Positions 11,863 through 61,592 of a stretch of DNA of 64,000 bases are shown here, in pieces (within the stretch, counting starts at the first letter, position 1; every line of letters begins with the position of its first letter). A program made the translations under genes and the position numbers. The notes under the pieces were generated by a model that was not told the DNA's origin, searched no databases, and was given only the letters and a program-made list of their open reading frames with translations. The stretch comes from a virus. Location: the IMG/VR virus record IMGVR_UViG_3300042878_001497, positions 96,001-160,000 of that record. The stretch is one strand, 5' to 3'.

Positions 11863-12204
11863 ATGAAAGAGCTACTCTTAAAAGAAATCCAAAACGTAAT
11901 TGCTGAAGCCACTAAAGTAAACTTTAAGGGTAAGCAGTTTGTACTTAAGGTGGGTGTTAACGAAGATCCAAACAAAAAAGGAATCAAAGTACAATTCATT
12001 CCTGCTGATATGTCTCCTATCAATCCTACCGAGCAGAATGAAATTGCAATGGCATTAGCTGAAAAGCTTGATACAGGTCTTAAGCAGTACGGTATGCAAG
12101 TAGAGAGAGACAGAGAGCTTAAAGACAAATCAATCGTAGGCTTCTTCATCTACATCGAATATGTAGATAAAATTATCCGTCAAGCATTAGGAACTGGAGC
12201 TTAA
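11863..12204 (+). CDS. hypothetical protein with LxE-type leader
   Basis: Begins MKELLLKEIQNVIAEA. Confidence 0.7.
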   Translation: MKELLLKEIQNVIAEATKVNFKGKQFVLKVGVNEDPNKKGIKVQFIPADMSPINPTEQNEIAMALAEKLDTGLKQYGMQVERDRELKDKSIVGFFIYIEYVDKIIRQALGTGA

Positions 12205-12218
12205 CCTAACTTACTTTT

Positions 12219-12374
12219 ATGAAAAGATTCTCTTTCTACAGTCGAACAGATAGTAGCCAGGAGGCTATTGGATCTACTTTTACATTTAACCGCCTTGCTG
12301 CTGCTAGGTACTTTGCAGAAAGAAAACATTTACCGCTTAAGAGCTTCTTAAGCCTATTTAAAGTCACTAGATGA
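12219..12374 (+). CDS. small hypothetical protein (51 aa, not in ORF track)
   Basis: MKRFSFYSRTDSSQEAIG...LFKVTR; stop overlaps the next ATG (ATGA). Confidence 0.6.
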   Translation: MKRFSFYSRTDSSQEAIGSTFTFNRLAAARYFAERKHLPLKSFLSLFKVTR

Positions 12375-12775
12375 ATCCTAAGGAAATACTTAGACGAATA
12401 CTAAAAGAACAGTTACCTTTGAAGTACCGAATAAAAGAGGTACCTCGAAATAAAGAAGCTATGCATAAAGAATTATTTATAGAAATACTTAAGCTGTTAA
12501 AAGAAATCGACGATCGAACAGACTTTGTAGCTTCCGAAATTGGAATGGATATTGCAGCTTACGAAGATAAGTTCTTTAGAGTTATCCACAACTTAATGAG
12601 AATGACCTTTAACAGGGAACAAGTTTTTCTAATCGAGCTGTACTTGAATGAAATCGACTACAACGAAAAAGAAGAATGGGATGGATGCATCTCAGTAACT
12701 GTTGGTAAAAAAGAGCAGAAGATTGCATTCCGCACCCCAGAAGATGTTTGGGAAGCTATTCAGAAATTTAAATAA
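12371..12775 (+). CDS. hypothetical protein
   Basis: 134 aa ORF in operon. Confidence 0.7.
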   Translation: MNPKEILRRILKEQLPLKYRIKEVPRNKEAMHKELFIEILKLLKEIDDRTDFVASEIGMDIAAYEDKFFRVIHNLMRMTFNREQVFLIELYLNEIDYNEKEEWDGCISVTVGKKEQKIAFRTPEDVWEAIQKFK

Positions 12776-12777
12776 AA

Positions 12778-12810
12778 GTTGGATCCTAACCAACTTCTTG
12801 CTATCTTTAG
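12778..12810 (+). promoter_or_regulatory. early-type promoter GTTG-N20-TATCTTTAG
   Basis: Exact motif and spacing, upstream of ATG 12827. Confidence 0.8.
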
Positions 12811-12826
12811 GTAAATAAATAAAAAC

Positions 12827-13219
12827 ATGGATAAAAGGTTCTGTACTGTGTGTGGGGATGAGATTAATCCCTTGCGTGTTAAGGCTCTGCCTGAAACTAA
12901 GACTTGTATTAATCACTCTACTGTAGGAGCGAAACGAGGTCGTATTCTCACTTTAGGAGAAGGAGATCATACTTACAATGAGATTGAAATTCTTGACGAA
13001 GAAACCTACCGCAAGGTAGTAGCTATAGAGTTAGGTGTGGATCGTCTAGCAGAAGAGATGCCTGAGATTCAAAACTACGATCAAACTCTGGTTGCTGATG
13101 ATACTCGTGCATTGAAAGAGAAAGCAGAGAAGTTTTTGGATGATGAAGAAGATGTAAAACTTCTAGAAGATCCAGATGAAGTAATTGAAGACTCAGAAGA
13201 AGAAGAGGAGGAAGAATAG
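12827..13219 (+). CDS. DksA/TraR-type zinc-finger protein with acidic tail
   Basis: CTVCGDEINPLRVKALPETKTCINH fits the DksA/TraR finger pattern; poly-Glu C-terminus. Confidence 0.75.
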   Translation: MDKRFCTVCGDEINPLRVKALPETKTCINHSTVGAKRGRILTLGEGDHTYNEIEILDEETYRKVVAIELGVDRLAEEMPEIQNYDQTLVADDTRALKEKAEKFLDDEEDVKLLEDPDEVIEDSEEEEEEE

Positions 13220-13866: not shown

Positions 13867-14084
13867 AAGTACCTAAGAAGCGACAAAGACCTCAGCTAGA
13901 TTCAGAGAAGAATAAACAGTTCCTACTAAAGAAGCACGCTGATAAACTTCTTGAACAGGACCAAAAAAATAAAAAGCTGTCGGAAAAGTTGCTCAATCGA
14001 GACATCTTTACTATCTTTAGTGAAGAAGAAACAAATAAAGGTTATGAGCGAGAAGAGAGGACAGACGGAGAAGATCAGATTTGA
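13863..14084 (+). CDS. small basic hypothetical protein
   Basis: 73 aa, ATGA overlap with the upstream gene; contains an internal promoter. Confidence 0.5.
   Translation: MKVPKKRQRPQLDSEKNKQFLLKKHADKLLEQDQKNKKLSEKLLNRDIFTIFSEEETNKGYEREERTDGEDQI
13988..14020 (+). promoter_or_regulatory. early-type promoter GTTG-N20-TATCTTTAG
   Basis: Followed by an A-rich leader and GGTTATG at 14044. Confidence 0.8.
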
Positions 14085-14838: not shown

Positions 14839-14842
14839 AAGA

Positions 14843-14876: not shown

Positions 14877-14898
14877 TATAATTAAAAACAAAATGGTT

Positions 14899-15720: not shown

Positions 15721-15735
15721 GATCAGAGATAAGAA

Positions 15736-23320: not shown

Positions 23321-23453
23321 TTTTAATATAAGAACTTTTGGTAGAAAAACCAACTATGTCCGGGGAAATTTTCCGGAAAAATTTTTATATATGTAGTTGT
23401 CTATATAATTATATCTTTATATATTTAATAATATAGGAGGAATCCTATTTATA
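23321..23453. promoter_or_regulatory. divergent promoters around a palindrome
   Basis: Minus-strand GTTG-N20-TATATTAAA (23354-23322), TTTTCCGGAAAA palindrome (23369-23380), plus-strand GTTG-N20-TATATTTAA (23396) and TATTTATA (23446). Confidence 0.7.
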
Positions 23454-23462: not shown

Positions 23463-23846
23463 ATGAAGCTTATCTCTGCTCTTCTTTCGGAATCTAAAAG
23501 CGGTATCTTTGACGGTAAAACTTACCTTGATGATGCTACTTCGGCTATGGAGTTTGAGAAAGGGTACGAGGCCTTAGCTAGATTTGTTCATCCTAGACTA
23601 GTTATCAAAAAAGGCCACGATCCCGATCTAAAAATGGATTTAACCATAGCTTATGAAGAGCCTTCGGATTTACACTTTAGGTATATCGAGACTACGGGAG
23701 AATTTTTCTACGATGAAAAAATCTTCAAAGCAATCCTTCAGACCCCGGCCGTAAGAGAGAAACTAGGTAAGCTTTGGAATATCTCCCCGGACCCGGTAGA
23801 GGTATTTCGCCGCTACGGTGCTGTTACAACTAAACTATCAGCGTGA
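23463..23846 (+). CDS. hypothetical protein with MKLxxLLxE leader
   Basis: Begins MKLISALLSES; late motif upstream. Confidence 0.75.
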   Translation: MKLISALLSESKSGIFDGKTYLDDATSAMEFEKGYEALARFVHPRLVIKKGHDPDLKMDLTIAYEEPSDLHFRYIETTGEFFYDEKIFKAILQTPAVREKLGKLWNISPDPVEVFRRYGAVTTKLSA

Positions 23847-29869: not shown

Positions 29870-30295
29870 ATGAAAGCTAGTGAATTTAAAAGTCTAATTA
29901 AAGAAGCTGTAAGAGAAGCTATCAGAGAAGAACTTTCTGAAATGAAAGCTCCCGCTCCTATGCAGACTGAAGCTACAGCACCTGCACCTAAGCCATTACA
30001 ATTCTCAGGAGGAAATCCTCTTATGGAAGCCCTTAATATGACTAGCCGTTCTATGACTTCGGAAGATTACCGCAGCATGGGAACAGCAACAGCTAATATG
30101 GCTGAAATGTTTGATAGAGGCGCATTCACGCCCAGGCAGGCCTTCAAACCAGTCTCTGAAGATCCTAGAGCAGTAGCTCAAGCTGTAGCCGCCGCCCCAA
30201 AAGTAGGGCTAGATCTATCCCAGTTGAGCTTTGTTAATAAAGCAGCAGCAATTGTAAAGCAAGCAAATAAGAAGAGAGATCCATATGGCGTATAA
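29870..30295 (+). CDS. late hypothetical protein with LxE leader
   Basis: Begins MKASEFKSLIKEAVREAIREELSE. Confidence 0.7.
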   Translation: MKASEFKSLIKEAVREAIREELSEMKAPAPMQTEATAPAPKPLQFSGGNPLMEALNMTSRSMTSEDYRSMGTATANMAEMFDRGAFTPRQAFKPVSEDPRAVAQAVAAAPKVGLDLSQLSFVNKAAAIVKQANKKRDPYGV

Positions 30296-41367: not shown

Positions 41368-41820
41368 ATGACTGAACCTACCTGGACTTATAAGGGTAGG
41401 GGTATCACTGAGATTTCTGACATGCCGGAAGGCACTTACGGATTTATCTATCAGATTACTCACACCCCTACCAACAAAAAATACCTCGGCAAAAAAGTCG
41501 TATACTTTACCCGCAAGGTAAAACTTACTAAAAAAGAGATTGCCGAACAGACTGGTCCTGGCCGCAAGCCAACTACCAAGCTCGTTACCAAAGAAAGTGA
41601 TTGGGATAGTTACTATGGATCAAATAAAGAGTTTCTAACCCTAACTAGAACCTACCCTAAAGAAGAATTCCAGAAAGAAATCCTAGAGTTTGTATCTTCC
41701 AAAAAGATGCTTACTTACTTTGAGTGTAAATATTTATTTAAATACGATGCTATTGAGAATAATCCTTTATACTACAATGATAACATCCTAGGTAAATTCT
41801 ACAGGAAAGATTTTCTATGA
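41368..41820 (+). CDS. GIY-YIG (Seg-like) nuclease-domain protein
   Basis: GFIYQITH...KYLGKK...YYGS...E...YYNDNI. Confidence 0.75.
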   Translation: MTEPTWTYKGRGITEISDMPEGTYGFIYQITHTPTNKKYLGKKVVYFTRKVKLTKKEIAEQTGPGRKPTTKLVTKESDWDSYYGSNKEFLTLTRTYPKEEFQKEILEFVSSKKMLTYFECKYLFKYDAIENNPLYYNDNILGKFYRKDFL

Positions 41821-42356
41821 AACTAATACAAGCCCTTCTTACTGAGAGCACTTACTCTAAAATCAAAGATGCTTTTAAGAAAGCCGGAGTTACCTATGTA
41901 GGGGGAGGATCTCATGGGGTTGTTTATAATGCACCCAATCCTGTGCCGGAATTCGGATACGAACCTAAAGAAGGCTACCTAGTAAAAATTACTCAGGATG
42001 ACATCGAAATGCAGGCTATGCTCAAGGCTCAAGGTAAGAGCTTTAAATACCTGGCAAACGTTGGCAAGGCAGTGGAGATGGAAAAAGGAGGCTGGTACCA
42101 GGTTGAGAACTTAGAACCACTACCGCAAGAATACTCTCAGGAAATTAAAAAGAACGTTCGTATATTAGATGAGTTCTTTATGGAAGGAGATAAGAGCATA
42201 CTTTCAAATCTATCCCCGTACCTACAGAAGGTCTTTATCGGTGCAAGACAGGAAATGATTCAAGCCGGAGTCGACCCTGAAGATGTTGATATGTACGGAG
42301 ATGATAACAACGTAATGGCAACCGCCGACGGTCAGATAAAATTAATCGACTATTAA
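41817..42356 (+). CDS. minimal protein-kinase-fold enzyme with MKLxxLLxE leader
   Basis: Gly-rich loop YVGGGSHGVVY, VKIT lysine, helix-C-like Glu, DMYGDDNNVM, KLIDY. Confidence 0.7.
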   Translation: MKLIQALLTESTYSKIKDAFKKAGVTYVGGGSHGVVYNAPNPVPEFGYEPKEGYLVKITQDDIEMQAMLKAQGKSFKYLANVGKAVEMEKGGWYQVENLEPLPQEYSQEIKKNVRILDEFFMEGDKSILSNLSPYLQKVFIGARQEMIQAGVDPEDVDMYGDDNNVMATADGQIKLIDY

Positions 42357-44160: not shown

Positions 44161-45072
44161 ATGGGAGGAAACGTATTCGGAACCACAGACAAGATTAAGA
44201 GGGAGGACATCAAGCCTACCCTCTTAAACTTTTTAAAAGAATTCAAGAGATTATTTCCTCAAGCAGAACCTCACTTCCGTCAAATGCAGACCCTAGGATC
44301 TGTAGGTAAGAAGGAGGTTTCTGGAGATATCGATTTAGCGATTTCCGATAAAAGCTTTGATAAGATTCAGGACTGGGGTCTAGATCAGCAGCACGTCCAG
44401 GAGCTTTTCGAACTCTTCAAAAAGAGATCAAGAACAGCCTCGGAAGAGCAGCTTATGAAAAGAGCTGTGATTGTTGCTATTGCTGAAAAGATCCAAGATG
44501 CTGATACCGACCTTGCTGTCGACGTAAAAGGTTCAGCTTCGGGTGCATTATTCCTGCAAGCTCCTCAATACAACGAAGCAGGAGAGCAGCTAGATAGCAA
44601 CGTTCAAATCGATATAAATGTCGGGGATGTTGACTGGCTTAAATTTGCTTACTACTCTAGCGTTTATTCTGGAAATGTGAAAGGATTGCACCGTACCCAG
44701 TTACTGGTTGCCCTATTTGCAAATAAAGGATATATCTTCTCTCACAACTACGGAGTTAAGAATAGAGACACCCAGGAAATAGAAGCTAAATCTCCAACTG
44801 AAGCTATCGAGCTTTTAAACAAGCTCTACAAAGCAGACTTTACTTCCGAGATTCTAGAGAACTACTTCAGTGTTATGGAGGCTCTCAAAAACAATCTAAG
44901 TGAGCAGGATCTAAATAAGGTCTACGATATCTACCTCAAGATTCTTGACAGCACTAGAGCCGACATTCCGGAAGATTTACAGGACTACTGGATTGCAAAT
45001 CAGGAGAGACTGCAGCTCAAAGGTAAGTTCCTTCCAGACGATTCTAATTTAGTAAAATATAAAGTACAATGA
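44161..45072 (+). CDS. Pol-beta superfamily nucleotidyltransferase
   Basis: LGSVGKKEVSGDIDL (GS..DxD) and third Asp in VQIDI. Confidence 0.8.
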   Translation: MGGNVFGTTDKIKREDIKPTLLNFLKEFKRLFPQAEPHFRQMQTLGSVGKKEVSGDIDLAISDKSFDKIQDWGLDQQHVQELFELFKKRSRTASEEQLMKRAVIVAIAEKIQDADTDLAVDVKGSASGALFLQAPQYNEAGEQLDSNVQIDINVGDVDWLKFAYYSSVYSGNVKGLHRTQLLVALFANKGYIFSHNYGVKNRDTQEIEAKSPTEAIELLNKLYKADFTSEILENYFSVMEALKNNLSEQDLNKVYDIYLKILDSTRADIPEDLQDYWIANQERLQLKGKFLPDDSNLVKYKVQ

Positions 45073-47924
45073 GCGGTGTAGCCGGAGGAAATAGAATTAA
45101 AAAGCAAGACGTCCAAGATACGTTTAATGATTTTGAGAATAAAGTTCTCAAGAAAATCCCTGGTTACAAAGCTGCAAGTCTATCTGGAAGCGTTAAAGCT
45201 GGCACTAAAGCCGACTTCGGAGACTTAGACGTTATTAGTACCTTTGAATACGGTGATAAGAAGCTTGCCAAGCAAGCAATCATCGACACGGTATCTAAGA
45301 TGCCAGACTCTCTAATTATGCCCTTCCAAAGCGATCGGTATAAAGGTAAGAAATTTTATAACTCCGGAGAGATTATCTCGGTACTCTACCCAATCAAAGG
45401 AGCACCGGGCGAAACTATTCAAGTTGATGTTATGGTTTCTCTTTCTGAAACCGAACACCAGTTTAAGAACTCGTTTTTAGACCTACCTGCCGAAGTGCAG
45501 GGTCTAATCTTAGGACTAGTTAAGACTGCATTAGTAGAGCAGAAGCCGGCCGAAGTATTCGCCCGTATGGGAATTAAAAATCTACCCCCCTTAGAAGCAA
45601 ATCAGGAATACGAATTTAACCTTTCTAGCGTAAATCTAACTCTCAGAAAAGTAACCCTAGACAACTTTAAAGAAGTAGCTAGAGAGGAAATCTGGAAATC
45701 AAATAACTGGTCTGACGTACAGAACCTATTAAAGGATTTTGATCTTAATCAGCCCTTTGAAAAGCTTTTAGACCAGATAACAAGATCGCTTACCAATCCT
45801 AGAAGTAAGAACCGCGTAGCAGGAATCTTCCGCTCGATGGTATCGGTTAAATCCGGTGAAGTAGGTACTCCTAAAGGAGATAATAAAGAGAAGGCTTTGT
45901 CACAAGTTGCTCAAACTCTAACAGAAGGAGAAGAAAGCACCATCGGACTTTACGGAGGTGGATTCAAACCCCCTCACCGCGGTCACTTCCACATCGCTAA
46001 AGAGCTAGCCAAGGACGTAGATTCAATTAAGATCTACATCGGTGGTACAATCAGAAAAGGAGAAATAATTACAGCTCAGCAGTCAAAAGATATCTGGGGG
46101 ATCTATGCCAAGTATTTAGGTGTGCCCACTGAAATTGAAATAGCACCGGTCACCCCTATCCTTTCAATCTACCAGGAAATCGAAGCTAACAAAAAACAAG
46201 ACTACTTAGTAGGTTCCTCTACTGACCCGGCAGATCTAGCTAAGTTTAAAGCTCTACAGCTCAATAAGGATAATCTCTACGATAGAGCAAAATTAAAAAT
46301 TGTGTCAACGATCAACGAAGAAAAGCTATCTGCTACTACAATTAGAACAGATATGGACTACCTAAAAGCAGGTCAATGGATGCCTGAAGAACTTTCAGCA
46401 GACGATAAAAAAACAGTACTAGGAATCCTAAAAGCAACCCCAGAGTACAAAATGGCAGAAGCCATCGACGATGTATTCAACAGCTTCCTAGGAGAAGGTA
46501 CAAAAGAAAAAGCAGAAAAGAAAGAAGAAGAAACTTCTGAAGTAACCATGGGAACTCCCATGGCACCGATTGCCGTAGTACCTTCTGAGATTCGTCAGAA
46601 AATGCAAAACCTTACCGCATACTTCCAGAAGCTTGCCCCGGACGATGTGATCGTAGACTTTAACGGTCAATCGATCGTTATTACCCCGATGTACTACAAC
46701 AAAGCTCTACCGATGGGACCAGCTGACTACACTCCCGAGCAGAAACCTATCGACGAATACCAGGATACTGCAGCAGCTATCAACTACGTACCTTATATCG
46801 CTGGTATTCTAGAGCATATGATTAAGAAGGGTATGACGGTATTACCGCTGCCGGAGATCAAAACTAGAGAAGATGAAGAAAACGCTGCTAACGTTTTTGG
46901 TAGGACTGCTTACTACGATCCTACTAAGAAAGAAGTCGTGCTGTATGTAACAGGACGTCACCCTAAAGATGTACTGCGTTCATTCTGCCATGAGATGATT
47001 CATCACATGCAGAACCTAGAAGATCGTCTACCAGCTTTTACTACTACCAACACCCAGGAAGATTCTACATTAAATGATATTGAAAAGGAAGCTCATTTCC
47101 TTGGTAGCATGCTCATGAGAGAGTACGAAGATTCGATTAAGAAGGAAGATAGCCTGGAAGAAGGTACCAAATACCGTTCAATCGTTGCTGACGTTAGAAG
47201 AGCTGTTAACGATGCTCTTAATGTCTTAATTAGTGGTAAAAAGCTAAAAGGATATAACGTTAAGACCAAAAGAGAGCCTACTAAAAAGGATTTAGAGTTT
47301 GCTGAAAAATACGGAATGTCTCCTTTAGGAGCTATGCTTTACAACGAATATCAATCAGCATACCTGGGAGAGTTTACAAGCAAAAGCGAGAAAGGAACTA
47401 AGACAGAAGACGGCAAGCCGGTAAATGTAGGGGTAAGTTTAAAATTTGCTCAAACCGACCAAGTAGCACCGGGCAAATTCCACATCGACGGTGAAGCCGG
47501 TTCCGATGAAGGAGAAATCGATATCATACTAGCTTTTAATCCGGCTGACGGGACTAATATGCTTCAACAAATCCAACCAATCTTAACCGATCTTATTCGT
47601 CACGAAACCGAACACCTAACCCAATCCGGGGTAGAAGTTCGCCCGGATAAGTGGATGAGAAAGGACGAAGCTAGAAGAAGAGCTATTCGTCAGAACCCGG
47701 AGATATGGTACAAGTATTACATGCTTCCTAAAGAAGTAGATGCTAACATCCAGGGCTTGCATACAAAGTCAAAGTACGAGAAGAAAGACTTCCAGTCAAC
47801 CGTTGACCAGTACCTAGAAGACCTAGTACAGGGTGAAATTATAACAGTTGCAAATAAGCAAAAAATTTACGATCTTTGGAAGAGCAGAATTCCCCAAATC
47901 GGAGGTATTCCAAACTTAAAATAA
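45069..47924 (+). CDS. multidomain protein: Pol-beta NTase + HxGH nucleotidyltransferase + two HExxH zincin-like domains
   Basis: SGSVKAGTKADFGDLDV/IQVDV; GGGFKPPHRGH..LSATTIR; HEMIH..EKEA; HETEH..EVDA. Confidence 0.8.
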   Translation: MSGVAGGNRIKKQDVQDTFNDFENKVLKKIPGYKAASLSGSVKAGTKADFGDLDVISTFEYGDKKLAKQAIIDTVSKMPDSLIMPFQSDRYKGKKFYNSGEIISVLYPIKGAPGETIQVDVMVSLSETEHQFKNSFLDLPAEVQGLILGLVKTALVEQKPAEVFARMGIKNLPPLEANQEYEFNLSSVNLTLRKVTLDNFKEVAREEIWKSNNWSDVQNLLKDFDLNQPFEKLLDQITRSLTNPRSKNRVAGIFRSMVSVKSGEVGTPKGDNKEKALSQVAQTLTEGEESTIGLYGGGFKPPHRGHFHIAKELAKDVDSIKIYIGGTIRKGEIITAQQSKDIWGIYAKYLGVPTEIEIAPVTPILSIYQEIEANKKQDYLVGSSTDPADLAKFKALQLNKDNLYDRAKLKIVSTINEEKLSATTIRTDMDYLKAGQWMPEELSADDKKTVLGILKATPEYKMAEAIDDVFNSFLGEGTKEKAEKKEEETSEVTMGTPMAPIAVVPSEIRQKMQNLTAYFQKLAPDDVIVDFNGQSIVITPMYYNKALPMGPADYTPEQKPIDEYQDTAAAINYVPYIAGILEHMIKKGMTVLPLPEIKTREDEENAANVFGRTAYYDPTKKEVVLYVTGRHPKDVLRSFCHEMIHHMQNLEDRLPAFTTTNTQEDSTLNDIEKEAHFLGSMLMREYEDSIKKEDSLEEGTKYRSIVADVRRAVNDALNVLISGKKLKGYNVKTKREPTKKDLEFAEKYGMSPLGAMLYNEYQSAYLGEFTSKSEKGTKTEDGKPVNVGVSLKFAQTDQVAPGKFHIDGEAGSDEGEIDIILAFNPADGTNMLQQIQPILTDLIRHETEHLTQSGVEVRPDKWMRKDEARRRAIRQNPEIWYKYYMLPKEVDANIQGLHTKSKYEKKDFQSTVDQYLEDLVQGEIITVANKQKIYDLWKSRIPQIGGIPNLK

Positions 47925-47925: not shown

Positions 47926-48486
47926 ATGGGCAAGTTAGCTGACTTACTACTTACTGAAGAGGAGCAAAATCCAAAACCAAAAGGCAAACTATTCTGTGAT
48001 ATGGATGGCGTGCTTACGGATTTTGTAGGCCGCTTTGACCATTACTTCGGTATGCATCCAAACGAGTACAAGGAGAAAAAAGGTGACGGAGGCTTCTGGA
48101 GCGTCATTGCACCTATCGGTCAGATCTTTTGGGAAGGAATGGAATGGACCCCGCACGGCCTACAGCTATGGGAACACATTAGAGATTTTAACCCAACTCT
48201 CTTAACTGCCCCCTCTGAAGAACAGTCTTCAAGAGACGGTAAGGTAGAATGGGCAAATAGGGAATTAGAACCTATTCCTCCGATCATCTTCCGTCCGGCT
48301 AAAGAAAAGCATCTAGAGTGTACAGGACCCGATGATATCCTAATCGACGATAGGGAAGATACCATTCAGAGATGGATAGATGCAGGAGGTGTAGGAATCT
48401 ACCATCCAGAAAACGGAGACCCATCCAACGTTATTATAAGATTAGAAAAGTTAGGTTATGTCAAGCCATCTGAAGAAAGAATTTGA
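47926..48486 (+). CDS. HAD phosphatase, 5'(3')-nucleotidase (NT5C)-like
   Basis: FCDMDGVLTDF, LLTAP, KVEW, ILIDDR; leader MGKLADLLLTE. Confidence 0.85.
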   Translation: MGKLADLLLTEEEQNPKPKGKLFCDMDGVLTDFVGRFDHYFGMHPNEYKEKKGDGGFWSVIAPIGQIFWEGMEWTPHGLQLWEHIRDFNPTLLTAPSEEQSSRDGKVEWANRELEPIPPIIFRPAKEKHLECTGPDDILIDDREDTIQRWIDAGGVGIYHPENGDPSNVIIRLEKLGYVKPSEERI

Positions 48487-49050: not shown

Positions 49051-49980
49051 ATGCTTTTAACTGAGTCAAAAGTTACTGCGGTATTAACAGAAGGTCTTCG
49101 CTACCATTTGCAGACCGGTACTCCCTTATACGAGAACATCTACCGTCCAGGATCAGAACAATACTTTACTACCATCCGTCAGGCACGTCTTCTTATGAAT
49201 GAAGGTCTACTACGGTGCCTCTGCCTAGAAGATATGGAACTTCTATTTGAAACCGAGGTAGGAGAGTACGCAGAGTTTGAAGGCAAGCAAGTACCTTTAG
49301 ATTTCCCAATGATTGGAGAAATTAGCTTTATAATTCCGGATGCAGAAGCAACCTGGCAGCAAGCCTCTACCAATCCTCAGATCCAGAAGATGGGTGAGGA
49401 GCAGTGGAAGAAGCTTTCCGACATCTCAAAAGCAGCCGGAGGATTTGGATATACAGCCAAATACACAGACATCGATCCAGTGATGGCTGATCTATCAGGA
49501 GAAGAAACAGTTACTTTTTCAGACGACGATCAAATCCAGATGCCAGTAGTGCTTAAGTACCAGGAAGCCGGTCAAGTAAAATACGAAATCGTAGTAGGAG
49601 AAGATATCCTACATAGCCTCATTTCTTCAGGCAAGGATACAGACCCGGACATCTGGGTAGTTGATATCACAAGCGAGGCTCTAGCAGAGGCTAAGTACCG
49701 TGGATCAGAAGTAGCTCTAAACAAACCCAAAAGAGGAGGACCTAAGAAATTCTACGTTTATACTCGTAACCCTAAGACAGGAAAGATCATCAAAGTCAAC
49801 TTCGGAGGTACTACAGGACTGACTGCCAAGATCAACAATCCTGAAGCACGCCGGAACTTCGCCAGCCGTCATAACTGCGCTACTAAAAACGACAAAACCA
49901 AGCCCGGGTACTGGTCTTGCAGACTACCAAGGTACGCCAAGCTTATCGGACTCAAATCAAGCTTTGGAGGATTCTGGTGA
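49051..49980 (+). CDS. late multi-segment protein with basic C-terminal domain
   Basis: Begins MLLTES; acidic middle; LAEA followed by basic KKFYVY..VNFG..RRNFASRHNC..YWSC. Confidence 0.7.
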   Translation: MLLTESKVTAVLTEGLRYHLQTGTPLYENIYRPGSEQYFTTIRQARLLMNEGLLRCLCLEDMELLFETEVGEYAEFEGKQVPLDFPMIGEISFIIPDAEATWQQASTNPQIQKMGEEQWKKLSDISKAAGGFGYTAKYTDIDPVMADLSGEETVTFSDDDQIQMPVVLKYQEAGQVKYEIVVGEDILHSLISSGKDTDPDIWVVDITSEALAEAKYRGSEVALNKPKRGGPKKFYVYTRNPKTGKIIKVNFGGTTGLTAKINNPEARRNFASRHNCATKNDKTKPGYWSCRLPRYAKLIGLKSSFGGFW

Positions 49981-50708: not shown

Positions 50709-50882
50709 ATGCACGCTTTTATGCGAGAGCTACTCCTAGAGGTAATCAAGGAGAAGCCCGGACTATGGGCTAATATCCGTGCACAAAAAGCTAGAGGAGA
50801 GAAACCTTCTCACCCAAACAGTAAAGCTTTCAAAGATGCTGTTAAGGCTGGAAGAGAGATTCTTAAAAAAGAAAAGAAATGA
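50709..50882 (+). CDS. small basic late protein
   Basis: Likely ATG at 50709; MRELLLEVIKE followed by GLWANIRA. Confidence 0.6.
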   Translation: MHAFMRELLLEVIKEKPGLWANIRAQKARGEKPSHPNSKAFKDAVKAGREILKKEKK

Positions 50883-51100
50883 AACTAATAGACCTCCTCT
50901 TAGAAGAGAACAACCCGGAAGATAAAGTTACTTTTGATATTCCCTTATTCATCAGACTTCTAGAGTACGCCAGAGAAGACGCCCAGGCAGACGTAGATCT
51001 ACACTTTATGGCCGATAACGCTATCAGACTCTCTGTAGAGGGTGAAACTCTAACAATGGATCATTACGATCAAATCGTTAAGCAAGATGAAGCTAAGTAA
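50879..51100 (+). CDS. small protein with MKLxxLLxE leader
   Basis: MKLIDLLLEEN...DIPLFIRLLEYAREDA. Confidence 0.75.
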   Translation: MKLIDLLLEENNPEDKVTFDIPLFIRLLEYAREDAQADVDLHFMADNAIRLSVEGETLTMDHYDQIVKQDEAK

Positions 51101-51500
51101 ACTCATCAGCGAAGCAGAGGTTAAATGTCCTCCTGCCACCCAAAACATCGATCTCAATCTTGAGAACAGACAGAAAGCCATTGACGAATACGGATACGGC
51201 CCTGCTGACCCTTCCCAGAAGAACGAAAAATTCTGGAAGAAGAAAATGGATATGTGGCAGGTCGATACGGCTGAAGAGCTTAAGAATATGGTGTGCGGTA
51301 CTTGTGCTGCCTTCGATATTACTTCTAAGACTTTAGACTGTATCGCTAAGGGCATCGGATCAGACATGGGTTCGGAAGATCCTTACGATGTTATTGATGC
51401 CGGTCAGCTTGGTTACTGCCGCTTTTTAAAGTTCAAGTGTGCAGCTGCTAGAACCTGTGACGCCTGGGTGATCGGAGGCCCGATCAAAGATAAGGAGTAA
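51087..51500 (+). CDS. Cys-rich protein with MKLxxLIxE leader
   Basis: MKLSKLISEA; CGTC..GYC..KC..TC. Confidence 0.75.
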   Translation: MKLSKLISEAEVKCPPATQNIDLNLENRQKAIDEYGYGPADPSQKNEKFWKKKMDMWQVDTAEELKNMVCGTCAAFDITSKTLDCIAKGIGSDMGSEDPYDVIDAGQLGYCRFLKFKCAAARTCDAWVIGGPIKDKE

Positions 51501-51712
51501 TGAAAAAATCTGAATTCCAGAACTTGATTCAAGAGCTAGCAGCAGAAGTGCTAACAGAAGGAATTCACGATCCTATGAATCCTGGCATTCTCAAAAAGAG
51601 GTTAGGTAAGCTTTCATGCTCTAAAGTAAGAGCGGCTAGAGGAAAACTTAAAGATAAAGGTACTACATATGCTAAAGCCCTGCAGAGGTACCTTAACTAT
51701 CACTGTCAGTGA
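51500..51712 (+). CDS. small basic protein with LxE leader
   Basis: Begins MKKSEFQNLIQELAAEVLTEG. Confidence 0.75.
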   Translation: MKKSEFQNLIQELAAEVLTEGIHDPMNPGILKKRLGKLSCSKVRAARGKLKDKGTTYAKALQRYLNYHCQ

Positions 51713-51964: not shown

Positions 51965-52849
51965 ATGAAGCTACAGGAAAGTATTATGAGCGATTTGGAT
52001 GCTCTTGCAAGAGAGTATTCAGATGTAGAGGAGTACATCCTAGCAGCTTTTTCAGATAAGTACTTTAATCTTAAGAAAGATAAAGACACCATTGAGTTTT
52101 TAAGGATTATTTTTGATAATGCACACAAGGACCTAGACATGGCTCCTATGCAAGTAACCGAGAAAAAAGCTACATACTGCGGCAGATGCGGACACACTCA
52201 CGTTAAAGGAACTCCTTGCCCAAGACCTTTTAAAGAAGGGTTATCACCTTACGGCGATGATGCATACTTCGTAGTACCAAACAAAGGAAAGATGAAAAAA
52301 GAAGATATTTTAAAAGCTATTAAAGAAGTACTAGCTGAAAATACAGTACAAGTCAGCAAAATAACCGGCCGTACTGGAGAAACAGAAGTGGATGTGGTAA
52401 CACCTAAGCAGAAGGCAGAGTTAGAAAAAGCTGGTGCAAGAGTCACCCCAATGGAGGAAGACCTAGATCTAGGACACCAGGATGACGAACCGCATATGAT
52501 CAAATCAGAGCTTTACAAGATTGCTAAATACGCTCTTGAGCTCTACAAAATGGTTGATCAGTTTGAAGGTAAAGGAGAAGTAGATTTTCCGGCCTGGTGG
52601 CAGTCTAAAGTCACAAAAGCATCTTCGATGGTTAGCAGTGCCAAGCACTACCTTGAGTTCGAACTAGCTGAACCGGCAATGGATCAGGCAGTAGTAGGCG
52701 ATGAAATGCCTGTTACAGAAAAACTAGACCCAGTCGGCCACGAAGATGAGGATGTTGATAATGACGGTAAGAAGAATACCAAAACCGACAAGTACATCAA
52801 AAACAGAAGAGTAAAGATCGGTCAAGCAATCGCAAGTCATAAGAAGTAA
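51965..52849 (+). CDS. mosaic late protein with several LxE-type sites
   Basis: MKLQES; VTEKK; CGRCGHTH..CP; internal MKKEDILKAIKEVLAEN; DLGHQDDEPHM; LDPVGHEDEDVDNDG. Confidence 0.7.
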   Translation: MKLQESIMSDLDALAREYSDVEEYILAAFSDKYFNLKKDKDTIEFLRIIFDNAHKDLDMAPMQVTEKKATYCGRCGHTHVKGTPCPRPFKEGLSPYGDDAYFVVPNKGKMKKEDILKAIKEVLAENTVQVSKITGRTGETEVDVVTPKQKAELEKAGARVTPMEEDLDLGHQDDEPHMIKSELYKIAKYALELYKMVDQFEGKGEVDFPAWWQSKVTKASSMVSSAKHYLEFELAEPAMDQAVVGDEMPVTEKLDPVGHEDEDVDNDGKKNTKTDKYIKNRRVKIGQAIASHKK

Positions 52850-53412
52850 TGAAGCTACAGGATCTAAGACATATCATCGAGGAAGCCTATCTTGAGGTGC
52901 TAATTGAAGCAGCTGAAGAACCAGCTACCGGTCCTAAGAGAGATCAAACGGACCCGACACTAGATATTCTTCAAAAATTTCCTACCTTACAGAAGACGTT
53001 AACACATTTGTTAACTTCCCAATATATGGAATTTGTAGAAAAGGTAGGATGGATGTCACCCAAACCTTCTACGTTTAAGGTCGAATTTAAATCCGGACAG
53101 GATATGACCTTAAAGTGGATGGGTAAAAACTTTGAAGCCAATATTGAAGGCAAGCGCTACTACCTAGCCAACCTTCCGGAATTCCAGCAGGCATTAGACA
53201 AGATCGGAATGATGCTCGCACACGGTCCTATTCAGACAGGAATGGATGCATTAGGAGGAGAAGAAGGAGCCGGAGGCGATGTATTCGCCGGAGCCGGAGC
53301 ACCTGAACCCGCAGCCGGAGCAGAAACAGGAGCTGAAGCCGGTGCTGGAGCAGGAGCAGAAACACCCGCTACACCAGCCGCAGGAGAAGAAGACGTATTT
53401 GCAGGACTATAA
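52849..53412 (+). CDS. late hypothetical protein with LxE leader
   Basis: MKLQDLRHIIEEAYLEVLIEA; Ala/Gly/Glu-rich tail. Confidence 0.7.
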   Translation: MKLQDLRHIIEEAYLEVLIEAAEEPATGPKRDQTDPTLDILQKFPTLQKTLTHLLTSQYMEFVEKVGWMSPKPSTFKVEFKSGQDMTLKWMGKNFEANIEGKRYYLANLPEFQQALDKIGMMLAHGPIQTGMDALGGEEGAGGDVFAGAGAPEPAAGAETGAEAGAGAGAETPATPAAGEEDVFAGL

Positions 53413-54572
53413 TGAATCTAATAGATAAGGTTATTGAGGAATGGGCTTGGAGATGCCCTAAAGGATACCCACAGTTGGACTCTAAGGAAGATCTTCGTAT
53501 CTTTGAAGGATTATTCAATATAAACCTTACCGAAGCATCTGTGAAGTCTAATACGCTCGCCGCCAAGCAAGTACTCTTACAAAAATATCCCGAGACTTTC
53601 TCGGCAATGGCTGATTCTGCCCCCCACCGTATAGGTAACAGAGGTAAGATATCTGCTGCGGATTTTACTGCTATCATCGAAAAAGAATTTGGCACCGCCC
53701 CAGAATATTTCGCTCCAAACACATCTCAGAACAATAAACAAATTAAACCAGACGGTAGCCGAACATTCCCATTATTCCGATTTAAAACAGAGAAAGGAGA
53801 TGTTGCTCTAATTCTAGCCGGCGGTCCTAAAGAAGAGACCTCTGAAAGACAGGAGCACGGAGTGATCAACACTATTAATTCTATTGAAGGAATTAAGACA
53901 ATTAAAGATCAAAACGGACACACTATCGAAGGTGTAGTTCGGGCAGAAAAAATGTCACCAGTGCCGGGATACAGGCATGAACCTTACTCTGATATTAAAC
54001 TTGTAATTCAAGGTACCGAAGATCCTTTCTTAATCTCAGCTAAAGGGCTTACCTCTCCTACCATTGCAGGAGGAGGCCTACAGGGAGCTATGAAACTATC
54101 CCCTAAAGTACAAGAGTTTATAAAACAGTTCTACGAAGATGCATACCAGTATTACAAAAAGATCTTTGAAGAGCATTCCGAACTGACTCCCGAATATAAC
54201 CTCTACAAAACAAGCTACTTTAAAGACGTTAACAGAAAAGTTCCTGAAGATATTGTACTAGAGATCGTAAAAGGTACCCCAGCAGTAGGAGGAGAAGTAG
54301 ACGCATACTACATCGGAGATATGAACGTACAGCCTCAGGTAGAAGGAAACGTAATTACTTTTAATGGTAATATTAAACCAGTAGAAGAGTTTGCAAAGCA
54401 GGATTTATATCTTCATATTAGAAAAAGAGATGGAGATTACTACTTTGTAGATAATATGCAGACAGTCAACGGAGTAACCATGCCGAGAATCTTCGCTAGC
54501 AAACCTAACGGAACTACAGCTAGCTCTAGATTAGGATCACACACCTCCCTACGTGGAACAGTAATTATTTAA
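53412..54572 (+). CDS. putative PD-(D/E)xK restriction-fold nuclease with N-terminal leader
   Basis: MNLIDKVIEEWAWRCPKGYP..LTEA, then ERQE..PYSDIKL..LISAKG. Confidence 0.5.
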   Translation: MNLIDKVIEEWAWRCPKGYPQLDSKEDLRIFEGLFNINLTEASVKSNTLAAKQVLLQKYPETFSAMADSAPHRIGNRGKISAADFTAIIEKEFGTAPEYFAPNTSQNNKQIKPDGSRTFPLFRFKTEKGDVALILAGGPKEETSERQEHGVINTINSIEGIKTIKDQNGHTIEGVVRAEKMSPVPGYRHEPYSDIKLVIQGTEDPFLISAKGLTSPTIAGGGLQGAMKLSPKVQEFIKQFYEDAYQYYKKIFEEHSELTPEYNLYKTSYFKDVNRKVPEDIVLEIVKGTPAVGGEVDAYYIGDMNVQPQVEGNVITFNGNIKPVEEFAKQDLYLHIRKRDGDYYFVDNMQTVNGVTMPRIFASKPNGTTASSRLGSHTSLRGTVII

Positions 54573-54575: not shown

Positions 54576-54920
54576 ATGCAAAAATTACAATCAATAGTTA
54601 CTCTTATAGCAATCGCAATTGCTATATTAGCAATGACCGGAGTTTTAAATCCGTACAAGAAAAAATACCTGACCGAACTAAAGGCTCAAGAAGAAGCTAG
54701 CCAAGCCAAAGTAGATACTCTGCAATCAGAGATCTTTATGCTGGAAGTAGAAAATGCAATCTTAGAAGAGAGAACAGATTCTGTGCTAGTAGTTCTAGGA
54801 ACTTCAGAAACCAAACGTAAACAAGAAAGAGATGCACACAATCGTAAAATGGCTGAGCTTGGTAAGCTTTCTAATGCTGAGCTTGCCCGCTACTTCGCAG
54901 AGCGTTACAATCGTAAATAA
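54576..54920 (+). CDS. membrane-anchored coiled-coil protein (i-spanin-like)
   Basis: N-terminal transmembrane helix and coiled coil; overlaps the next gene by 89 nt. Confidence 0.5.
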   Translation: MQKLQSIVTLIAIAIAILAMTGVLNPYKKKYLTELKAQEEASQAKVDTLQSEIFMLEVENAILEERTDSVLVVLGTSETKRKQERDAHNRKMAELGKLSNAELARYFAERYNRK

Positions 54921-55251
54921 CGACACCCTAATCTGCCTGCCAGATTCAATTGCTAGAAAAGTTATCGCTGATCTAGAGGAAGGAGACTTATGTCAAAGAG
55001 AGCTTCTAAGCTACAAAAAAGACGTTGAAAGCTACCTTACTCTAATCGGTATTAAAGAAGAAGAAATTACAAACTTTAAAACTATTGTGACTAAGAAAGA
55101 CGGCATTATTACCGAACTTAATGTACAATTAGGAATTAAAGAAAAAGAAATCGCAGTACTAAAGACCGGCAAAGCCGCTAACTACTGGAAAGGGTTATTC
55201 ACCGGACTAGGAGCAGGTGCAGGCCTAGTACTGGTATTAACATTGTTATGA
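54832..55251 (+). CDS. secreted/membrane coiled-coil protein (spanin-partner-like)
   Basis: Signal-peptide-like N-terminus, coiled coil, C-terminal transmembrane helix. Confidence 0.45.
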   Translation: MHTIVKWLSLVSFLMLSLPATSQSVTIVNNDTLICLPDSIARKVIADLEEGDLCQRELLSYKKDVESYLTLIGIKEEEITNFKTIVTKKDGIITELNVQLGIKEKEIAVLKTGKAANYWKGLFTGLGAGAGLVLVLTLL

Positions 55252-58733: not shown

Positions 58734-58764
58734 CATATATTTATATTAGTAGAATTACATACTC

Positions 58765-59619
58765 ATGAAAATTAAGCATTCAAAGTATAAAAACACTGGC
58801 CTTATTTTTGAGCTATTGGTAAAGCAGATCGCTGCCGATACTCTATCGAGGAAAGACTCCCCGGCAGTGAAGGTACTCAAGAAGTTCTACACAGGAAAGA
58901 CATCGCTAGTTAGAGAATTTAAACTCTACGAATACATCCTTAAGAACAAAGGAGTATCCCAGCCCAAAGCCGACACCATCGTCTCCACTATCATCGAGAT
59001 CTCTAACAAGTTAGATAGAACTGCTATCAAGAAGCAGAAGTACGATCTTATCAAAGAGATTAAAGAGTCTTACGACCTAGAGGAGTTCTTCTCTATGAAG
59101 GTCCGGGACTATAAGCCGTTAGCTGCTCTGTACTGCTTGATGGAGACTCAAAGCTCTGAAGATCTCGCTGATCCTAAGTTCATCGTCGATAACAGAGTTA
59201 CTATTCTAGAGCACTTGACTGCTAAGAAGCAAAATGAGGTTGACGTAAAAGATGCACTAATTGAAGAGTACGCAAAATACGATAAGGACTTAAGACTCCT
59301 TACCTACAGAATTCTACTTGAGAAGTTTAACGGCGAGTACGAAAACTTCCTACCTGAGCAGAAAGCAATCCTTAGAGAGTTTATCACAGCTTCTGAATCT
59401 CAGGTTAAGTTAAGAAATATGATCAACGAAGAATTAGAGAAGATCTCTAAAGAAGTTGAAACTTTGAAGGCTAAAGTAAACGACGAGATTGTAAAAATCA
59501 AGCTTGACGAAGTACATAAGATTATCAAACCTTTAGATAAGAAGACTCGTATCGACGATAATCATATTGTTAATTTGTTGCAATACTACGAATTAGTAAA
59601 TGAGTTAAAGTCAATATGA
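58765..59619 (+). CDS. head-module hypothetical protein
   Basis: Between portal and protease; late motif upstream. Confidence 0.7.
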   Translation: MKIKHSKYKNTGLIFELLVKQIAADTLSRKDSPAVKVLKKFYTGKTSLVREFKLYEYILKNKGVSQPKADTIVSTIIEISNKLDRTAIKKQKYDLIKEIKESYDLEEFFSMKVRDYKPLAALYCLMETQSSEDLADPKFIVDNRVTILEHLTAKKQNEVDVKDALIEEYAKYDKDLRLLTYRILLEKFNGEYENFLPEQKAILREFITASESQVKLRNMINEELEKISKEVETLKAKVNDEIVKIKLDEVHKIIKPLDKKTRIDDNHIVNLLQYYELVNELKSI

Positions 59620-59834
59620 AAAAGAGCGAATTCATCGAAGTACTAAGAGAGCTCATTCAACAGGAGCTCAACGAGGTGAACGTAACAGGAGCTATTGCAC
59701 CTATCACAACTCCTTTCGCTTTTTCAAAAGGAAAAAAAGACAACAGAGCCGTTAAGACAATGAAGGGCTTTGGTTACACTAAAGCAGAAAGACCAAAGAG
59801 ACCCTCACACACTAAAATGTTTGATTTCAAATGA
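59616..59834 (+). CDS. small head-module protein with LxE leader
   Basis: Begins MKKSEFIEVLRELIQQELNEV. Confidence 0.7.
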   Translation: MKKSEFIEVLRELIQQELNEVNVTGAIAPITTPFAFSKGKKDNRAVKTMKGFGYTKAERPKRPSHTKMFDFK

Positions 59835-60691
59835 GAACACTACAGGAAAAATATAATGCTGTTCTAGAAGGAAACTTCTCAAAAGAGCAATTTAGGAGAG
59901 ATGCAGTTATGCAGCTTCCTAACGTTGTTTCTAAGTTTAACAGCTTTGAAGATATGACAGCCATCCTCAAGAACAGAGGTATGATTGCTGAAGCTAAAAA
60001 AGAAGAAGTAACAGCCTACAAAAAGCCAGAAGTAGATCCTATCGATTTAATTGCCCCGGACCTTTTAGATGACGGCATCAGAGCTGAACTAGAAGCTAAG
60101 GGCATCGAAGGAACTCCTTCTGAAGAAGAGTACACAAAAGCAAAAGAGAAAGCAGCTAAGAATCTAGCAAAAGATCCTCTTCATTATAAGAATGCCCAGA
60201 CCATGCCTGAGATGGGTGAGAAAATGGAGAAAGCAAAGCTTCAAGAAGGTGACACTCAAAATACTTTCTTAAGAGACCGTGAAAGACTAAGAGATGAACT
60301 TTCAGACAAGGAAGTAGCTGCTGCAGTAGCAGATGAGCCTAACAATGTAGGTAAAGCATTCAGAGATATGGTAATGCAAGAGCCTGAGACGTATGTGAAA
60401 ATGTCTAAAGACGAGCTTATTGCTGCTTTCAAAGACTACAAAGAGAACTACTACATCGATCAAGAAGCTCAAGAGCGAATGGATGCTATTGCAGGTCAGC
60501 CTGACTTCCAAGAAGGAGCAGAAGACGTTAATGTAGATGATTTTGAAGCTAACAGAACCAATACTAGAGATTTCGCTTCAAGCCATCCAAAAAAGAAAGA
60601 CGACGGCACTTACGACATCAAAGACATAATGAAAGAAGCCCAGCTCAAAGAAGCAGTAAAGGCTTTAATTAAGAAGACTCTAGAATCATAA
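59831..60691 (+). CDS. head-module (core/internal) protein
   Basis: Many L/I-x-E sites (LQEK, IAEA, LQEG, LKEA); AAKNLAKDPLHY. Confidence 0.65.
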   Translation: MRTLQEKYNAVLEGNFSKEQFRRDAVMQLPNVVSKFNSFEDMTAILKNRGMIAEAKKEEVTAYKKPEVDPIDLIAPDLLDDGIRAELEAKGIEGTPSEEEYTKAKEKAAKNLAKDPLHYKNAQTMPEMGEKMEKAKLQEGDTQNTFLRDRERLRDELSDKEVAAAVADEPNNVGKAFRDMVMQEPETYVKMSKDELIAAFKDYKENYYIDQEAQERMDAIAGQPDFQEGAEDVNVDDFEANRTNTRDFASSHPKKKDDGTYDIKDIMKEAQLKEAVKALIKKTLES

Positions 60692-60693
60692 TC

Positions 60694-61272
60694 ATGGCAA
60701 ATCTCTTAATTGAATATACCCCCTTCCGTCCTACGATCACCGAGTCCGTCAAAAGACCCGGTATCTTTGAGGTGACAGGTGTTATGCAGAGAGCCGGAAA
60801 GAAGAACCAAAACGGAAGAATCTACGAAAGAGCTATCCTCGATAGAGAGGTTAAGAAGTACATGGAAGCTTTCGTTAAAGTAGGTAACGCATACGGTGAA
60901 CTAGATCACCCAGAATCTCCAATTGTATCACTAAAGAATGCTTCACACGTTGTGAAGGATTTATGGTGGGATGGAGATGATCTAATGGGTAAGGTTGAGC
61001 TACTCAACACCCCGGCCGGTAACATCGTAAAAGAAATCATCAAAGGCGGACACACAATCGGTATCTCTTCTAGAGGTACAGGTTCAGTCCAGCCAATTGG
61101 TGAGAACACCCTAATGGTTAAAGACGATTTTGAATTGGTGTGCTGGGATTTCGTATCGAATCCTTCTACACACGGAGCATTTCTAAACCCCGTCTCTTTA
61201 AATGAAACAAAGCAAGTTGTAGACCGCTACAGCAAGCTTCATAACATTATCGGAGACATTTTAAGAGCATAA
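60694..61272 (+). CDS. prohead protease (gp21-like)
   Basis: NQNGRIY, GELDHP, GISSRGTGS, WDFVSNPSTHGA. Confidence 0.95.
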   Translation: MANLLIEYTPFRPTITESVKRPGIFEVTGVMQRAGKKNQNGRIYERAILDREVKKYMEAFVKVGNAYGELDHPESPIVSLKNASHVVKDLWWDGDDLMGKVELLNTPAGNIVKEIIKGGHTIGISSRGTGSVQPIGENTLMVKDDFELVCWDFVSNPSTHGAFLNPVSLNETKQVVDRYSKLHNIIGDILRA

Positions 61273-61295
61273 AACTAAAAAAAAAGTAAAAGAAG

Positions 61296-61592
61296 ATGGA
61301 AAACTTTGATTTAAAAAAATTCTTAGTAGAGAATAAGCTTACTGATAATTCTAAGGAATTATTAGAATATGATATTAAATCGACCGGTGAGGAAGAAATT
61401 ATCTACGAAGTAGAGGTACTTGATGAAGACGGTAAAATAAAGTCCTATACTAAACTTAGCGCCGAGAAGTTTGACCTGTACATAAAAAATAGCCCCCTAC
61501 CAGTAACAATCAAATTCAAAAACAGAACAGTAAGAGCTGTTACGAAAATCACAGGAGTCACTGACGATATGGGTCGTCCGATGAACCTATAG
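61296..61592 (+). CDS. late protein with MENFDLKKFLVE leader
   Basis: 98 aa; LVE and LLE sites near the N-terminus. Confidence 0.7.
   Translation: MENFDLKKFLVENKLTDNSKELLEYDIKSTGEEEIIYEVEVLDEDGKIKSYTKLSAEKFDLYIKNSPLPVTIKFKNRTVRAVTKITGVTDDMGRPMNL

Follow-up and report, generated by a model that had tools for sequence, protein, structure and literature searches.

The window analysed here, a stretch of 64,000 nucleotides from the IMG/VR virus record IMGVR_UViG_3300042878_001497, encodes head-core proteins and about ten further late proteins with unrelated bodies that begin with short amphipathic leaders of 8-25 residues ending in hydrophobic-(L/I)-x-Glu. We read these leaders as a capsid-targeting and maturation system of the T4 type, found in a distant lineage, with several leader classes and a large, shuffled cargo, through which the tagged proteins would be loaded into the capsid; we put the probability of this reading at roughly 60%. 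In such a system the leader helix would bind the assembling scaffold core and the protein would thereby be built into the prohead. The prohead protease encoded at 60694 would then cut behind the Glu, in many cases using two or three redundant sites, the leader peptides would leave the head, and the mature proteins would stay with the DNA and probably enter the host along with it. Cleavage at the leader sites is a strong inference from sequence and homology, targeting to the capsid is suggested by analogy with T4, and injection of the cargo is the least certain step.

The phage is an uncultured lake relative of the Flavobacterium "immuto" phages, and the window covers its late region. It is part of a 102-kb record rated 63% complete, and all of its genes lie on the + strand. 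The portal is 73% identical to that of Flavobacterium phage vB_FspM_immuto_2-6A (immuto), 54% to that of Microcystis phage Mel-JY01, 35% to that of Rhodothermus phage RM378 and about 25% to those of classical T4-like phages. A megablast search of the head region against cultured phages gave no match, and by protein only immuto, Mel-JY01 and RM378 were near.

Excess of the leader motif in late genes

The initial annotation had listed 16 open reading frames (ORFs) with a similar N-terminus, and all 16 are present where it had placed them, with a small correction at 50709. The loose pattern [LIVMF]xE within 16 residues hits about half of all N-termini, which is too permissive, and it was replaced by stricter patterns. 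In the first 13 residues, [LIVMF][LIVMF]xE occurs in 25 of the 139 proteins of the phage record, compared with 5.1% of internal 13-residue windows (binomial p = 3e-8). As a control, residues 2-13 were permuted within each protein in 1000 shuffles, which keeps the N-terminal composition. Among the late genes (window position 23400 and beyond) the pattern Phi-[LI]-x-E was observed 17 times against 4.6 +/- 1.9 expected, a count reached in 0 of the 1000 shuffles; the genes before 23400 gave 3 matches against 3.1 expected (late versus early, Fisher p = 0.005). The enrichment that the initial annotation anticipated over shuffled and early-gene controls is thus found, at a lower count than its figure of about 16, since the realistic number above chance is about 12. 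We take the leader excess to be real and restricted to the late genes, and composition or chance is effectively excluded as its explanation. The glycosylation genes (1-11.7 kb) lack the leader, in agreement with the earlier remark that such genes mostly do so.

The same trend is seen in 80 related IMG/VR loci taken around the portal, where the motif is present in 28% of the N-termini and in 8.1% of internal windows. With a pattern that permitted L, I, V, M or F at P3 and one representative per body family, P3 was L or I in 88% of the N-terminal motifs and in 54% of the internal ones (Fisher p = 2.6e-10). For calibration the pattern was applied to T4, where it matches 18 of 269 ORFs with 15.9 expected, that is, with no genome-wide excess; these matches include IPI, IPII, IPIII, gp68, gp21, gp22, gp24 and Alt. 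The excess in the present phage is therefore unusual and points to a larger tagged set than that of T4. We also observed that the T4 ORF 76061-76885 (274 amino acids, aa), which may be gene 2 (the DNA-end protector), starts MAIFQIINE↓S (here and below the arrow marks a predicted cut) and fits the gp21 motif.

Head module, prohead protease and its predicted sites

The gene content indicates that the phage assembles its head as T4 does: it encodes a portal and small core proteins, a prohead protease of the S77 family and a scaffold, and its capsid protein is gp23-like and has a propeptide. The large terminase (from 55248) and the portal (from 56856) are followed by a 284-aa candidate prohead core protein (58765-59619), which has no N-terminal leader and is dense in [LI]xE sites. 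Next come a 72-aa protein in the position of T4 gp67 (59616-59834) with the class II leader MKKSEFIEVLRE↓LIQQELNE↓ and a 286-aa protein in the position of T4 gp68 (59831-60691) starting MRTLQE↓. Between the prohead protease of the T4 gp21 family (60694-61272; phrog_207) and the scaffold there is a hypervariable slot, occupied by a 98-aa protein (61296-61592) with the class I leader MENFDLKKFLVE↓NKLTDNSKELLE↓. The scaffold-like protein of 451 aa (62095-63450) is rich in [LI]xE and sits between the protease and the capsid protein as gp22 does in T4, and the gp23-like major capsid protein (63468-64000; phrog_138) runs off the window. This order of portal, small proteins, protease, scaffold-like protein and capsid protein is the T4 order gp20-67-68-21-22-23.

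The protease that the initial annotation had placed at 60694 is borne out by a match of 107.9 bits (cut-off 27) to PF03420 Peptidase_S77 and by an alignment to the T4 gp21 structure 5JBL (E = 1e-18). The catalytic His85 and Ser140 of gp21 have equivalents in it, with ELDHP corresponding to T4 ELNH(85)P and GISSRG to GVS(140)SRG. The N-terminus of the protease itself carries MANLLIE↓Y and, at about residue 17, TITE↓S, and the [IL]-x-E↓S site near residue 17 is conserved in 34 relatives; further on, LNE-171 aligns with ITE-187 of T4. The N-terminal sites are similar to LIE-9 of T4 gp21, which is discussed in PMC9026906.

The capsid protein is 33% identical to T4 gp23. Its start, MELNSLLNE, had been pointed out as a match to the leaders and is indeed there, although it is only the first of four (L/I/V)-x-E sites (LNE-9, LLE-35, ILE-51 and IKE-60) in a propeptide of about 60 residues. 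All four sites are kept in 22 relatives, and the fourth precedes the mature part of the protein. The segments KW..LLE↓G and I(L/F)E↓NQ resemble the T4 gp23 propeptide in a comparison by eye, BLAST aligning the C-terminal half only.

Relative to a genome-wide background of 1.2 [LI]xE per 100 aa, the 58765 protein, which is conserved in 64 loci, holds 15 sites in 284 aa (5.3 per 100 aa, P = 3e-6) and the 62095 protein 15 sites in 451 aa (P = 5e-4). The density in the former is comparable to that of T4 gp22 (5.95 per 100 aa), a protein that is shredded by gp21. We tie the leaders to the head protease because of the S77 homology, the capsid propeptide, the [LI]xE-dense 58765 and 62095 proteins, the bias at P3 and the invariance of Glu at P1.

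Leader classes on unrelated bodies

The N-terminal 14-mers were clustered with one representative per body family, and the bodies were compared without their first 15 residues; signal peptides formed a cluster of their own, which served as a control of the method. The largest cluster, class I, is a 24-residue leader with two sites, MENFDLKKFLVENKLT.NS..L.E, and has the consensus M(x)NF[DN]L[KR]KFL[VT]E↓NKLT.NS..L.E↓. In the window it is represented by 61296; overall it heads 41 families of different bodies, which are 72-611 aa in length. Column identity is 50-100% in the core NFDL..FL.EN and drops to about 5-10% past the second L-x-E; in one family the drop falls exactly after LLKE. Class II, MK(K/L)S(E/Q)(L/F)..(L/I)(I/V).E or MKLI.LL.E, is found on 19 bodies and includes 29870, 47926, 50879, 51500 and the gp67-like 59616. 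The start MKKSEF is common to 59616 and to the cargo genes 51500 and 29870, so the cargo leaders copy the N-terminus of a head-core protein. Among 63 distinct relatives of the gp67-like protein, one of the two Glu columns has E in 60 and the other in 59, Asp being very rare in them, and the polar columns beside them vary freely among K, E, Q, S and R. Pairs of similar 16-mers between families (score ≥ 40) numbered 568 at the N-termini versus 64 and 14 internally, part of this excess coming from the conserved N-terminal domains of the 53412 and 59831 families.

Whole records hold 0-5 copies of class I, and among cultured phages this leader is present only in immuto. A database search with it for longer proteins gave 17 matches, none with a Pfam domain. 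The class I motif is also found at the extreme C-terminus, where EALQEGFDLRKFLAENRK ends the protein (L036_7449, L043_962, L044_3189, L046_133), and internally (L083_6731 at residue 426, L025_7180, L040_4418, L084_7033). Each internal copy follows directly after an A-L-Q-E site, and one of them retains the Met of a formerly separate ORF.

Comparison of the homologs indicates that the leaders are portable, that they are kept, lost or swapped, and that genes split and fuse at them. The initial annotation had assumed a single portable tag shared by all of the proteins. Its portability stands, given the bodies that carry class I and class II; its singleness does not, as there are at least two leader classes and some of the members are conserved N-terminal domains in which an L-x-E happens to be contained.

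Predicted enzymes behind the leaders

Two of the tagged proteins are predicted enzymes. The first (41817-42356) bears the leader MKLIQALLTE↓ and is predicted to have a mini protein kinase fold. Its AlphaFold2 (AF2) model has a mean predicted local distance difference test score (pLDDT) of 90.7, with residues 1-8 below 50 and outside the confident fold, and the top 50 Foldseek matches in the PDB are all protein kinases (E ~ 3e-5, TM 0.37-0.48). The residues typical of kinases are conserved, with G31 and G34 in the G-loop, K57 as the beta3 Lys, E64 as the alphaC Glu, D158 and N165 as the catalytic Asp/Asn and D178 as the DFG-like Asp. Compared with canonical kinases the protein is truncated, and an Atlas lead pointed to the T7 kinase. 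The leader is retained as MKLIQALL(T/S)E in homologs with 36-41% identity, other homologs lack it and open with the body itself, and one has a different leader, MEYIRKIVREIIKE.

The second (47926-48486), a predicted 5'(3')-deoxyribonucleotidase of the haloacid dehalogenase (HAD) type, carries MGKLADLLLTE↓ followed by a variable linker. Residues 19-164 match phrog_2643 (E = 2.3e-23), the DxDG motif being present as CDMDGV, and Pfam gave no match at 0.01. The immuto ortholog keeps LADLLLEE with a different linker. The diversity of cargo claimed earlier is thus upheld for a kinase fold and a HAD 5'-nucleotidase, but not for the "nuclease-like" member 53412, for which there is a weak Atlas lead only; as a restriction endonuclease this protein was considered and set aside (0.87-0.89).

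Further tagged proteins and neighbouring genes

Pfam searches on ten leader proteins returned nothing at E <= 0.01, and among them PHROGs named only the nucleotidase. In a 187-aa protein (52849-53412) a 20-residue leader, MKLQDLRHIIEE↓AYLEVLIE↓, is followed by an acidic linker that varies, then by a conserved domain of 85 aa, and at the end by a Gly/Glu tail. The motif is present in 28/35 relatives, with E12, E16, L18 and E20 nearly invariant and a linker varying by 0-150 aa, and in immuto gp079 the leader has its aligned counterpart inside the protein, at residues 676-695. A function from structure was sought and not obtained, the AF2 model having a mean pLDDT of 60 and the domain giving middling matches (best Z 6.5; frataxin-like, Mediator chains). 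A Cys-rich 137-aa protein (51087-51500) starts MKLSKLISE↓; a leader is present in 6/6 members of its family, those of the relatives being longer or different. The 309-aa protein at 49051-49980 starts MLLTE↓SKVTAVLTE↓ and lies 11 nt downstream of the promoter-like sequence TATTTATA, which is treated below; its leader is kept in 4 close homologs and its C-terminal domain matches phrog_7595. The 141-aa protein at 29870-30295, just upstream of the baseplate genes, starts MKASEFKSLIKE↓AVRE↓AIRE↓ELSE↓, and its immuto ortholog keeps MKLDLLKKLIKE↓AVKE↓AVRE↓. An orphan of 127 aa (23463-23846) with the leader MKLISALLSE↓, 10 nt downstream of TATTTATA, has no homolog in immuto or the related loci.

Several small genes are best understood together with their fused relatives. 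The 73-aa protein at 50879-51100 (leader MKLIDLLLE↓E) has a body that in relatives is an internal module of larger leader-bearing proteins (L075_2761, L062_2524). Upstream of it, a basic peptide of about 57 aa (50709-50882) reads AFMRELLLE↓VIKE↓ and then PGLWANIRAQKARGEKPSH; its start codon is uncertain, the ORF reading MHAFMRELLLE and the relatives having a longer N-terminus. In L062_2524 the modules of 50879 and 50709 are joined in one protein that has just one leader. The basic motif PGLWANI(R/N)AK(K/R).(R/K)GEKPSH.NSKA was observed both as a stand-alone small ORF and as a module of larger tagged proteins (50709-50882, L062_2524, L063_598). The basic 70-aa protein at 51500-51712 (leader MKKSEFQNLIQE↓LAAEVLTE↓) is equivalent to the last 67 residues of an immuto protein of 252 aa, which has a leader of its own.

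The 294-aa protein at 51965-52849 is composed of two modules and has a weak MKLQE↓ start. A leader-like KEDILKAIKE↓VLAE↓ lies inside it at residues ~112-125, the N-terminus of a separate ORF (L009_4217) aligns to residue 112 onward with the module order permuted, and both modules are found within immuto gp079 (841 aa; L001 34006-36531). An acidic repeat, LDPVG(K/H)ED.D(V/I)(D/N)NDGK....DKY(I/L)KNRR, is shared by 51965-52849 (residues ~250-285) and immuto gp079; it looks like a calcium-binding loop and also matches phrog_4359 and phrog_38880, PHROGs families to which no function is attached. The 386-aa protein at 53412-54572 starts MNLIDKVIEE↓WAWRC.KGYP. The 113-aa protein at 11863-12204, which starts MKELLLKE↓, is a weak candidate outside the late block; its immuto ortholog starts MSLINE↓IKQILSE, so that the leader sequence is not conserved. 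We regard 11863, 51965, 53412 and 59831 as weak or ambiguous members.

Beyond the window, at the equivalent of positions 69121-69435, a 104-aa protein encoded after the head-completion gene starts MITLEQLLSE↓, and the leader is present in 14/15 relatives; by its sequence it is likely a further member.

The 951-aa multi-domain protein at 45069-47924 has no N-terminal leader and contains TLTE↓G directly before an HxGH nucleotidyltransferase domain, with a weak PF01467 match at residue 294. A cytidylyltransferase-like protein of Mel-JY01 that starts MGKLINILLSE was tried as a relative, and no BLAST link was found; the two may represent another fission or fusion at a leader. The gene upstream of the kinase (41368-41820) encodes a SegE-type GIY-YIG endonuclease (PF19835, E = 1e-25), and its immuto ortholog gp100, annotated as "NAD synthetase", looks misannotated. 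Directly upstream of the terminase gene, a 139-aa protein (54832-55251) with a start like that of a signal peptide or lipoprotein (MHTIVKWLSLVSFLMLSLPATSQ) is conserved in 8 loci.

A candidate late promoter

The sequence TATTTATA occurs in 14 copies in the window (7057 to 61993), all on the + strand, with 5.9 expected on both strands; sites include 23446, 27239, 38763, 44119, 49032, 50187, 51715, 56832, 58738 and 61993. Eleven of the 14 copies are in short gaps directly before start codons, mostly 10-45 nt upstream, and mainly of structural genes; among the genes so preceded are 23463, 49051 and those of the portal and the scaffold-like protein, the last of these behind the copy at 61993. From 23463 onward every leader gene belongs to a unit headed by this sequence, together with structural genes, which agrees with the earlier statement that most leader genes are located downstream of it. 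It is reminiscent of the T4 late promoter TATAAATA, and we propose it as a candidate late promoter of the lineage.

Discussion

The closest parallel to the leaders described here is the capsid-targeting sequence (CTS) of T4. The CTS MKTYQEFIAE is enough to bring about packaging, and gp21 cuts it (PMC8442874; PMC9026906), Asp at P1 blocks the processing (PMC9026906), and cargo of this type goes into the capsid and is ejected with the DNA (PMC9026906; PMC3012670). Leaders of this kind open gp67, gp68, gp21, gp22, gp24, Alt and IPI-III of T4. The two systems, taking that of T4 as the CTS of IPI-III and the short propeptides of Alt, gp24, gp67 and gp68, which gp21 takes off in every case, have in common a homologous S77 protease, a leader of 5-20 residues that ends in (L/I)-x-Glu and is shared by unrelated mature parts, late genes, a hypervariable repertoire, and matching sites in the capsid protein and the protease. 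In outline, class II (MKKSEF..LI.E) looks like MKTYQEFIAE, with MK..(E/Q)F..(I/L).E present in MKKSEFQNLIQE and MKKSEFIEVLRE, but 10-12 residues are too few for the likeness to be put to a statistical test.

The differences are equally clear. The present lineage stands very far off (its portal shares ~25% identity with those of T4-like phages and 35% with that of RM378), and its leaders fall into at least two classes, of which one has 24 residues and two sites. It has about 12 tagged genes in 40 kb, compared with about 10 in the whole of T4, and the tagged proteins include enzymes (kinase, nucleotidase). Leaders are also found internally and C-terminally, and the system is known here from sequence alone. 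In the giant phages phiKZ, 201phi2-1 and SPN3US, many head-internal proteins, ejection proteins among them, are likewise processed after Glu by a protease related to T4 gp21, with redundant propeptide sites and with conserved N-termini on diverged paralogs (PMC5694885). However, their propeptides are mostly >100 residues long and cut at (S/A/G)-x-E, whereas here they are short with L or I at P3, as in T4. The T4 literature has already proposed the CTS as a general route by which T4-like phages load diverse proteins (PMC9026906); therefore, our finding is not a new principle.

One would argue that the leaders are true signals for the prohead core and the protease, and that the tagged proteins serve assembly and are afterwards degraded or expelled, so that there is no injected payload. 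Many of the tagged proteins are small, acidic or of low complexity and are encoded beside the head genes, several hold further internal [LI]xE sites, and gp67, gp68 and gp22 of T4 behave in this way (PMC5694885). However, few internal sites occur in the kinase and the HAD nucleotidase, both of them compact enzymes, and the 385 small families near the head module are hypervariable and shuffled and look like host-interaction genes. Additionally, the internal proteins and Alt of T4 show that cargo of the CTS type survives and is injected (PMC3012670; PMC8442874). On balance we consider an assembly role without injection unlikely.

It could also be that the tag is recognised by another partner, such as a modifying enzyme, a chaperone or a non-capsid complex, and that L-x-E is incidental to the amphipathic helix. 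The lineage encodes GroEL/GroES, immuto has tagged genes outside the late block, and class I motifs occur at C-termini as well. Yet the same motif is borne by the capsid protein, the protease and the gp67-like protein, the P3 bias towards L/I and the invariance of Glu at P1 match the protease rule, and an ALQE site precedes the internal class I copies, which leaves this explanation with little probability. A pairing of tag and enzyme of the RB43 type was considered as well, and no radical-SAM gene was found in the 102-kb record (63% complete). Finally, the pattern could be suspected to arise from composition, from constraints at the translation start, where A-rich codons give K/E/I/N, or from a general helix-first tendency, given that MK... 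starts are common, that the loose pattern hits so many N-termini and that T4 has no genome-wide excess with the same pattern (18 vs 15.9 expected), but this is highly improbable, as the excess is gone after N-terminal shuffling (0/1000) and is absent from the early genes of this genome, as P3 favours L/I, and as the leaders on unrelated bodies agree in up to 24 residues, identical or similar.

Some of our own data nevertheless weigh against the capsid-targeting reading. About 4-5 of the late matches are expected by chance, and only about half of the 18 matches in T4 are known substrates; since as many are non-substrates, the motif alone cannot call a single gene. Immuto has look-alike leaders in its early region too (24569, 25061, 1803), the first site of the gp67-like protein has Val at P3 in most members, and some junctions in fused relatives lack [LI]xE. 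In the case of 53412 conservation continues beyond the Glu, which makes the start an N-domain of about 40 residues on variable bodies, like an ordinary domain. Similarly, MRTLQE of 59831 begins a conserved N-domain of about 60 residues followed by a variable body, the relatives being 286-1042 aa long. These two families are therefore rated ambiguous, their starts being conserved N-terminal domains. A 5'-nucleotidase is an unexpected passenger of a capsid, and a literature search found no virion proteomics or N-terminal data for this phage or immuto.

If the system does work as in T4, the leaders would mark the proteins that travel in the capsid and are the first to reach the host. A set of hypothetical proteins would thus become a list of candidate early-acting effectors, for example a protein kinase and a nucleotidase, and this in a phage whose guanine is also replaced. 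A cultured relative exists, immuto 2-6A on Flavobacterium sp. LMO8, so the idea is directly testable, and the short leaders could serve as packaging tags in the engineering of such phages.

A wider reading, which we offer tentatively and at somewhat less than even odds, is that this Bacteroidota phage lineage runs a plug-and-play capsid cargo system, in which hundreds of shuffled effectors, from kinases and nucleotidases to small basic or Cys-rich proteins and polyproteins, would be loaded through several interchangeable leaders, cut apart and injected, and in which the 24-residue tag flanked by protease sites would work N-terminally, internally and C-terminally. In that case the tag alone would allow the injected effector repertoire of uncultured phages to be read from sequence. 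The lineage is abundant and aquatic, with >590 portal relatives in IMG/VR. If our reading of the leaders is true, the capsid-targeting principle of T4 would be extended to a distant and environmentally common lineage with a larger and more modular repertoire.

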